From a virus (lineage: Duplodnaviria; Caudoviricetes): a DNA stretch of 64,000 bases. Under the pieces are notes generated by a model. The model did no database searches. It was given only the letters and a program-made list of their open reading frames with translations, and had not been told where the DNA came from. Shown here piece after piece: positions 31,531 through 32,582 of the stretch (position 1 is its first letter; the number at the start of each line of letters is the position of its first letter). The position numbers were made by a program, and so were the translations under genes. The stretch lies in IMG/VR virus record IMGVR_UViG_3300032295_000225, positions 3,698 to 67,697 of that record; one strand, written 5' to 3'.

Positions 31531-32355
31531 ATGAACCCAGCAAACCCTTTACAAAAGTTTTTTAGACAACCAAAAATTTATGTATCATTGCCTAGCAAAG
31601 GATTGTTCTACGAGCCTGGTGCGTTTGTAGGTGACTACAATAACGTTCCTGTCTTTGCTATGACTGGCATGGATGAAATTGTTTATAAGACCCCCGATGC
31701 ACTGTACAGCGGAGAAGCTACTGCTAAAGTAATTGAAAGCTGTTGTCCGTTTGTAAAAAATGCAAAGGTAATGCCTAGCATTGACATTGATGCACTTATT
31801 ATTGCTATCAGAATTGCAACATTTGGAGATAAACTATCAGTTTCTCAAAAATGTACAGCTTGTGAAACTGAAAATGACTACGACATTGACCTAAAAGGCA
31901 TGCTAGACTACTTTAATAACTTAAAATTTATTAATACTGTTGTTATTAACGATTCACTAACTATTAAAATTCGTCCGTTACAGTACGATGAAATGAGTTA
32001 TTTTAGTATAGAAAATTTTAAATTACAAAAAACTCTGTATCAAACAGTTGAAATGGCTGACGCAGAAAAACAAAAACAACTTGATCAAATTTACAAAGAC
32101 CTTAGTGAACTACAACTACAATTATTTTTAACTGCTGTTGAGCAAGTTCAAACACCCGACGGTAATGTAGATAACAAGACTTTTATTGAAGACTGGTTAC
32201 GTAATACTGATAGAGATTCGTATAACAGTATCAAACTTAAATTGGAACAAAACAAAGAAACATGGAGCATGCCTAAGCAGCAGATAAAATGTGCTGCCTG
32301 CGGGCATGAAGATCATGTTAATGTTACACTGGATCAATCAAATTTTTTCGTATAA
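31531..32355 (+). CDS. gp26: Baseplate hub assembly protein / tail chaperone (T4 gp26/gp51 family), 274 aa
   Basis: FFRQPKIYVSLPSKG, MT..DE....P..L..GEA, D.DAL.IAIRIATFG, two CxxC motifs (CTAC, CAAC) and the terminal FF are typical of this family. Confidence 0.75.
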   Translation: MNPANPLQKFFRQPKIYVSLPSKGLFYEPGAFVGDYNNVPVFAMTGMDEIVYKTPDALYSGEATAKVIESCCPFVKNAKVMPSIDIDALIIAIRIATFGDKLSVSQKCTACETENDYDIDLKGMLDYFNNLKFINTVVINDSLTIKIRPLQYDEMSYFSIENFKLQKTLYQTVEMADAEKQKQLDQIYKDLSELQLQLFLTAVEQVQTPDGNVDNKTFIEDWLRNTDRDSYNSIKLKLEQNKETWSMPKQQIKCAACGHEDHVNVTLDQSNFFV

Positions 32356-32582
32356 AGTTACTTCGTCTCTCAAACTCTGAGATTGAAGCCTATATTAACA
32401 GTCTTGAAAATGATGCTAAAGGCATCAAAGATGAAATTTTTAGACTAAGTTGGTATATGCGAGGTGGAGTAACTAGCCAAGAATTGTTTCACATTTACTC
32501 TTATGAAGATAGAGTGTTGATTAATGACATTGTCAAAGACAACATTGAAGCGACTAAGAAGTCTGGTTTAAATTTAATTTAA
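32343..32582 (+). CDS. -1 frame extension of the gp26-like gene (short gp51/gpT-like domain), probably reached by ribosomal frameshifting
   Basis: Not in the ORF track. Open frame FFRIKLLRLSNSEIEAYINSLENDAKGIKDEIFRLSWYMRGGVTSQELFHIYSYEDRVLINDIVKDNIEATKKSGLNLI*; first ATG only at 32457, with no RBS; begins at slippery A AAT TTT TTC (32340-32349). Confidence 0.7.
   Translation, partial: FFRIKLLRLSNSEIEAYINSLENDAKGIKDEIFRLSWYMRGGVTSQELFHIYSYEDRVLINDIVKDNIEATKKSGLNLI

Follow-up and report, generated by a model that had tools for sequence, protein, structure and literature searches.

Background

Xu, Hendrix and Duda are said to have described, in 2004, a conserved -1 frameshift in the tail assembly chaperone genes of long-tailed phages, and a myovirus example, the E/E' tail chaperone pair of phage P2 with the slippery sequence T_TTT_TTG, was reportedly presented by Christie et al. 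in 2002. In phage lambda, a -1 slip on a canonical heptamer close to the gene's 3' end yields the short protein gpG and the C-terminally extended gpGT. According to the standard review, long-tailed phages 'except T4' conserve the tail-chaperone frameshift (Atkins et al. 2016, PMC5009743). The T4 proteins gp26 and gp51 are each listed as a 'hub assembly chaperone' (Leiman et al. 2010, PMC3004832, Table 2), gp51 being essential and absent from the finished particle (PMC3004832). Here we analyse a gene of the gp26/gp51 family at positions 31531-32355 (plus strand) of a stretch of 64,000 nucleotides (nt), hereafter the window, which covers positions 3,698 to 67,697 of the IMG/VR record IMGVR_UViG_3300032295_000225. 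That record, 67.7 kb long, is a fragment from an uncultured giant lake phage related to T4, about 19% of the genome according to its completeness estimate.

Comparison of this locus with its relatives makes it very probable that a programmed -1 frameshift produces a short and a long gp26/gp51-like protein from this one gene. Full-text literature searches found no report of a frameshift in a gene of this family; the slip would be a variant of the known tail-chaperone frameshift.

A candidate frameshift signal in a gp26/gp51-family gene

The 274-amino-acid (aa) product of the zero-frame open reading frame (ORF) belongs to the baseplate hub assembly family of T4 gp26 and gp51. It matches PF12322 (T4_baseplate) at 2.6e-18, with 66.9 bits against a cut-off of 24.5 bits and residues 55-273 aligned to profile positions 38-218, and it matches phrog_150 at E 1.8e-18; PF12322 is matched by all 65 aligned relatives. 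The gene ends TCA AAT TTT TTC GTA TAA and, as an earlier note on this DNA had described, contains two overlapping slippery heptamers, A_AAU_UUU at 32340-32346 and U_UUU_UUC at 32343-32349, both on the plus strand and both in the X_XXY_YYZ register, the second beginning at the T that forms the third base of the Asn codon. One sense codon separates the heptamer from the zero-frame stop TAA at 32353-32355. The -1 frame has a stop nine codons 5' of the Phe-Phe pair and is then open through a TAA at 32580-32582, with no ATG, GTG or TTG before the ATG at 32457, leaving its first 38 codons without a start, again as the earlier note had it. The extension beyond the slip (32349-32582, plus strand) comprises 77 codons, CGT to ATT, and the stop. 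Since a slip on either heptamer gives the same junction (...DQSNFFRIK...), both predict the same product, and the sizes first estimated as 274 and about 350 aa become 274 and exactly 350 aa (273 + 77).

We propose the following course of events. The gene would be transcribed late, from an octamer upstream of it, TATAAATA. Most ribosomes would read the zero frame to TAA 32353-32355 and release the 274-aa protein, the equivalent of T4 gp26. A fraction, when tRNA-Phe fills the P site (UUU) as well as the A site (UUC) of U_UUU_UUC, would slip back by one base and pair anew with UUU UUU; the next codon would be CGU (Arg), the first of 77 before the TAA at 32580-32582. The resulting 350-aa protein would share its first 273 residues with the short form and add a C-terminal helical domain, making it the equivalent of T4 gp51. 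By analogy with lambda G/GT the two forms would be made in a fixed ratio, and by analogy with T4 gp26 and gp51 both would serve as non-virion chaperones of hub and tail assembly.

Conservation of the slippery heptamer

Conservation of the terminal TTT TTC across orthologous loci had been proposed beforehand as a check on the frameshift. Every one of the 147 loci compared has T_TTT_TTC in register: the window itself, six cultured jumbo phages (RaK2, PA5oct, Atu_ph07, Phosso, the Serratia phage BF and XbC2), 59 metagenomic loci of jumbo type (42 IMG/VR loci at 35-99% identity and 17 further IMG/VR loci) and 81 loci of cyanophage type (S-BM1 and 80 others). Protein identity to the jumbo myovirus relatives is 28-31%, and the lowest value across the loci is about 28%; a blastn search of the locus against cultured phages returned no match, so the homology is detectable at the protein level only. 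In each of the six cultured jumbo phages the heptamer is followed by a -1 frame of 72-79 codons, beginning F-F-R (F-F-Q in PA5oct).

Of 225 ungapped codon columns in 24 diverse sequences (mean third-base identity 0.55), only the three that make up the heptamer agree at the third base in every sequence (100%). The residue before Phe-Phe is variable (N, S, T, H, R, A or G), its codon (AAT, AGT, ACT, CAT, CGT, TCT, GCT or GGT) invariably ending in T. The second Phe is always encoded by TTC, the less used of the two choices in these genes (50 of 268 Phe codons), and the C of this invariant codon is also the first base of the conserved Arg codon of the -1 frame. Judged from these alignments, the heptamer is conserved beyond what the zero-frame protein needs. 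In Phosso and XbC2 the region in which the shift could occur is also narrow: a -1-frame stop one codon before Phe-Phe, together with the zero-frame stop, limits the shift to the heptamer. In the first 49 jumbo-type loci the latter stop follows the heptamer by 1-11 codons, and in 80 of 80 cyanophage-type loci by exactly one.

Only one of the two heptamers in the earlier note shares this history. While U_UUU_UUC is conserved throughout, A_AAU_UUU is clade-specific, occurring only where the preceding codons are NNA AAT; it is absent from RaK2, PA5oct, Atu_ph07, Phosso, BF and XbC2 and from most cyanophage-type loci. A candidate upstream stimulator resembling a Shine-Dalgarno sequence, a 'GGA' 12 nt upstream, was dropped, as the alignment showed no conservation of it across relatives.

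The heptamer sequence is not rare in the window, where TTTTTTC occurs 13 times against an expectation of 22.4 +/- 4.2 (99 of 100 shuffles have at least 13 copies), so that its occurrence alone is not significant and the significance rests on conservation. The sequence is under-represented in the window, which is consistent with avoidance of slippery runs.

Homopolymers are error-prone, and a seventh T would bring both parts into one frame, so that the true gene might be a single 350-aa ORF broken by an assembly or sequencing indel, or a gene in decay. The T6-C arrangement recurs, however, across the 147 loci, in complete cultured genomes and in independent assemblies alike, which excludes the sequencing indel that the earlier note had named as grounds for refutation; the zero-frame stop is moreover kept close behind the heptamer, and no genuine in-frame fusion (see below) reads FFR. 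We give an indel or decay next to no credence as the explanation.

The -1 frame as coding sequence

The earlier note had suggested looking for a coding signature upstream of ATG 32457. Over the 35 codons from the slip site to the first ATG, the -1 frame contains no stop in any of 16 relatives, compared with 2-9 stops in each other frame. Pairwise differences within this start-less segment, in the same 16 relatives, are 0.34, 0.21 and 0.45 at codon positions 1, 2 and 3. By this signature, the start-less -1 frame upstream of ATG 32457 is coding.

The extension also occurs as part of continuous genes. A profile of the extension searched against 1.84 billion protein representatives matched 397 proteins; among the best 150 of these, most are mini-ORFs and about 20 are in-frame fusions of 319-351 aa, and the N-terminal phrog_150 domain was present in all ten fusions scanned. 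The fusion junctions, such as '..SxxFRxxLI', read x-F-R and never F-F-R, and the fusions are therefore natural rather than miscalls of the T run. They come from independent JGI, ENA and Logan assemblies.

One of the fusions (P0155), searched against IMG/VR, returned only further loci of the frameshift type, and a metagenome scan with the protein P0143 found nothing. A second metagenome scan, with P0367, led to a contig, Ga0116227_10001555, in which positions 9009-11014 hold two family genes in tandem: a short paralog that lacks the extension and, behind it, a 338-aa long paralog with the extension fused in frame. The stop of the short paralog overlaps the start of the long one (TGATG), and the junction in the long paralog, CGT TTT CGT, is not slippery. 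These tandem paralogs are a third genetic solution, besides the slip and the divergent genes 26 and 51 of T4. Of the complete genomes, those with the slip site (RaK2, Atu_ph07, PA5oct and S-BM1) have one PF12322 copy each, and T4 has two.

Current annotations suggest another explanation, in which a separate small gene begins at ATG 32457 (41 aa) or at a non-canonical start and the heptamer is incidental. Mini-ORFs of this kind are annotated as Atu_ph07 gp687, Phosso 319, BF gp247, XbC2_245, the 'gp51' of S-BM1 and phrog_18291. An independent gene would leave unexplained why the stretch ahead of the ATG, 38 codons long, shows protein-level conservation and a coding signature right from the invariant F-F-R, and why the heptamer does not vary at synonymous sites. 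Lineages differ in where the first start codon lies, and the natural fusions join the two parts at exactly this point. A separate gene is thus very unlikely, and a frameshift remains the reading that we favour.

Relation to T4 gp26 and gp51

T4 gp26 (208 aa) and gp51 (249 aa) both match PF12322 and phrog_150 and form, like the two products predicted here, a short and a long version of one protein, the tail being added directly after a conserved Phe-Phe. Coverage of phrog_150 runs from position 14 to 235 in gp26 and from 13 to 280 in gp51; gp51, reaching further along the profile, is thus a gp26-like core with a C-terminal tail. It follows that the whole 350-aa product, and not the extension alone, corresponds to gp51. 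The earlier note had seen here a gp26-like chaperone joined to a gp51-like tail; the family membership stands, while equating gp51 with the extension does not. The T4 arrangement differs in that the two forms come from divergently transcribed paralogous genes with no slippery site: gp26 ends GAG TTC TTT GAG TTA CTA TAA, which keeps the Phe-Phe in the non-slippery coding TTC TTT and has no extension. Since one gene would make both forms in the window, these would be identical over their N-terminal 273 residues.

The link to the gp51 tail is clearest in cyanophages. Their extension aligns with residues 209-249 of gp51 (hhalign probability 95.6%, E 1.2e-8) and matches phrog_634, 'baseplate hub assembly catalyst', at 6.6e-30; by these profile comparisons it is homologous to the C-terminal tail of T4 gp51. 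The annotated 'gp51' mini-ORF of cyanophage S-BM1 lies within the -1 extension, which bears out the suggestion that the short 'gp51' ORFs of related phages are misannotated frameshift extensions. The cyanomyovirus 'gp51' mini-ORFs (T4-GC_12; phrog_634) and those of the RaK2 group (phrog_18291) are the same element, a start-less -1 extension after T_TTT_TTC, which the databases annotate as independent small genes called from the first internal ATG.

The extension of the window is more distant. It has 77 aa where the gp51 tail has about 45, and their similarity is weak (hhalign P 4e-4, probability 9-35%), although collinear over gp51 columns 221-254. Aligned with whole gp51 it finds the same segment (P 3.7e-3; Y.l..Im.MiP.ER), and it aligns with the cyanophage extension on the same columns (P 0.009), the three pairwise alignments being mutually consistent. 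The extension itself has no PHROG match and falls in neither phrog_634 nor phrog_18291. Its positional equivalence to the gp51 tail is firm; homology is probable from the alignments.

T4 gp25 was considered as a counterpart of the extension and rejected: no similarity between the two was found, and gp25 starts at an ATG of its own. Gene 25 begins in the -1 frame right behind T4 gene 26, its start overlapping the gene 26 stop (TAATG), and an internal product of gene 26, 26' (95 aa), is annotated in the T4 sequence used here (L055, 2803-3090, minus strand). In gp51 relatives (P0272-P0363), precomputed annotations give a second Pfam family, PF28602, presumably the gp51 tail. The PA5oct record carries an electrospray tandem mass spectrometry (ESI-MS/MS) note on the neighbouring gene and none on the gp26-like gene, a weak hint as to absence of the gp26-like protein from the finished particle.

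Predicted structures of the two forms

The AlphaFold2 model of the short form has a mean predicted local distance difference test score (pLDDT) of 90.7. Its top BFVD matches are 'baseplate hub assembly protein, T4-like' (E 2.4e-21, template modelling score 0.87), followed by many myovirus hub subunits or chaperones. Foldseek against the PDB and a sequence search of the PDB both came back empty, and no solved structure is a convincing match. For the extension we used a natural fusion (P0133), whose AlphaFold2 model has a pLDDT of 95.4 and a predicted template modelling score (pTM) of 0.90; the extension is predicted to be a well-ordered helical domain, modelled as four helices (266-275, 279-308, 313-317 and 321-341) with pLDDT 88-98.

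These models bear on whether the frameshift could be real and its extension without a function of its own, serving only to divert ribosomes or tune the output of the short form. Any function of the extension is so far a prediction, which speaks for such a role. Yet the extension is conserved as a protein, with W37, M39, R40 and N67 invariant in the group to which the window belongs. Fused and two-gene lineages retain it as an in-frame domain, as does the essential T4 gp51 (PMC3004832), and it is predicted to be a well-ordered helical domain. A functionless extension is accordingly very unlikely, and we favour a frameshift that adds a working domain.

Cysteines C108, C111, C254 and C257 of the short form are nearly invariant across the family and form a split four-Cys zinc ribbon; weak matches to Pfam zinc ribbons of the Elf1 type occur in 34 of 65 family members. 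Between the halves of the ribbon the chain makes a long antiparallel hairpin of helices (residues 152-202), and no solved structure shows this fold.

Downstream RNA structure and weight of the evidence

The signal, its invariance at synonymous sites, the coding -1 frame, the fused and two-gene forms and the single family gene where the slip site is present are all observed; that slippage occurs, and any rate of it, we infer from these. Several points weigh against a programmed frameshift at this locus. The trans-frame protein is a prediction from sequence. The 147 loci share a phylogeny, and their number therefore exceeds that of independent events. As the record is only about 19% complete, a second family gene may lie elsewhere in the phage. 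An hmmsearch of the extension profile against T4 gp51, gp26, gp25, gp27, gp28, gp29 and gp48 gave nothing significant, and the similarity of the window's extension to the gp51 tail, at the hhalign probability given above, is suggestive only. The RNA structure downstream of the heptamer in the window is not statistically notable, and RNAalifold found no consensus structure among 23 diverse relatives or among eight close ones.

That structure is a hairpin at 32361-32388 (plus strand), which folds as the earlier note had described; the minimum free energy (MFE) structure extends outward to 32357, 7 nt after the heptamer. Its stability of -10.4 kcal/mol over 78 nt is matched or exceeded by 50 of 200 shuffles (z -0.59; in-gene control fraction 0.40), and as a conserved or significant stimulator it did not hold up. 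In the eight close relatives 79% of cells pair, compared with 29-53% in slid controls, and there is one compensatory pair; the hairpin region overlaps conserved codons. With no consensus structure, a universal stimulatory hairpin was rejected. Nonetheless, the downstream 60-nt MFE falls within the best 5% of in-gene windows in 10 of 23 lineages (mean -12.3 vs -7.8 kcal/mol), with stems starting about 6 nt after the heptamer. Stimulators therefore seem to be lineage-specific.

The same stems help in weighing a different route to the long form, in which RNA polymerase slips on the U6 run and adds one U, so that a share of the transcripts encodes the 350-aa fusion directly. The product would be identical (x-F-F-R), so that a conserved T run and a conserved -1 frame fit transcriptional slippage equally well. 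In bacteria, however, the runs known for productive transcriptional slippage have at least about 8-9 A or T (reviewed in PMC5009743), and the run here is exactly six T followed by an invariant C. The base ahead of the tandem codons is fixed as T in the X_XXY_YYZ register, as re-pairing of tandem tRNAs predicts, and about half of the lineages have a stable stem that starts 5-8 nt downstream, as ribosomal frameshift cassettes typically do. We consider transcriptional slippage improbable, if less so than the other alternatives discussed here, and ribosomal frameshifting by far the better account.

Comparison with the lambda and P2 chaperones

The earlier note had invoked the logic of lambda G/GT in a T4-like phage. 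The likeness extends to a short and a C-terminally extended form apparently produced by a -1 slip on a canonical heptamer close to the gene's 3' end, to a probable tape-measure gene next door, and to the absence of the T4 counterpart gp51 from the virion. It does not extend to gene order: lambda G shares a strand with the tape-measure gene and sits immediately upstream of it, with the tube gene on its other side, whereas the probable tape-measure gene of the window is divergent, a layout found also in RaK2, PA5oct, BF, XbC2 and Phosso. The window protein is also much larger, has a zinc ribbon and is in no Pfam family of tail assembly chaperones (TAC); indeed, none of the 65 family members matched one. 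A resemblance of fold is at noise level. A wide VIA-align search gave generic helical matches only (Z up to 8.1); the fused model brought up YqbN (3klu, Z 5.3) and the HK97 TAC (2ob9, Z 4.4) at noise level, as leads only, and with the window's own model neither was in the top 50, the list being filled by a helical hairpin. P2 E/E' is similar in coming from a contractile-tail phage and in slipping by -1 on a run of six T, and different in that E belongs to another protein family, is small and lies directly upstream of the tape-measure gene.

It is possible, though we hold the idea tentatively and with some doubt, that gp26/gp51 proteins fulfil in the T4 superfamily the function of the lambda G/GT chaperones, and that the two are perhaps distantly related. 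The common part would then coat the tape measure or hub, with the frameshift tail recruiting whichever building block comes next; a chaperone frameshift would be universal in long-tailed phages, and T4 genes 26 and 51 would represent a derived duplication that replaced the slip. If true, this would explain the standing of T4 as the textbook exception.

With the frameshift proposed here, the 'except T4' qualification to the conserved tail-chaperone frameshift (PMC5009743) would be removed or at least reinterpreted. The long-unexplained T4 gp26 and gp51 would be recast as the short and long forms of one chaperone, which makes their ratio and the binding partner of the tail the functional questions to ask. 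The slip would explain the puzzling tiny 'gp51' core gene of cyanophages, and would constitute a concrete recoding event in a very large and ecologically dominant group of phages, the cyanomyoviruses, the giant T4-related phages of fresh and marine waters, and therapeutic-candidate jumbo phages such as RaK2 and PA5oct, whose current records annotate the product as two genes or as a meaningless mini-ORF. The three interchangeable genetic solutions (slip, tandem paralogs, divergent paralogs) may be regarded as a natural experiment on why frameshifting is used.

Genomic context

The octamer TATAAATA lies at 31496-31503 (plus strand), 28 nt 5' of the start codon, and was recognised from the sequence as resembling a late promoter of T4 type; it equals the T4 late promoter consensus, and may act as a late promoter for the frameshift gene.

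The divergent neighbour is a 914-aa ORF at 28726-31470 (minus strand), which lies immediately upstream of the portal gene; Pfam, PHROG and tblastn searches gave no match for it. The syntenic gene of RaK2 is annotated as a virion structural protein similar to tape measure, a weak BLASTP match (E 8e-5) connects the ORF to the syntenic gene of Phosso, and the nearest Atlas clusters that carry names are tape measure proteins (scores 0.90-0.92, a lead only). It is probably the tail tape measure protein. Other neighbours in the record include genes for the portal, the major head protein and a late sigma factor, as well as gp5-like and gp25-like baseplate genes.

On its other side the frameshift gene is met by a converging 379-aa ORF at 32574-33713 (minus strand) that has no Pfam or PHROG family. 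The 3' end of this ORF overlaps the last 9 nt of the -1 extension, stop codon included.

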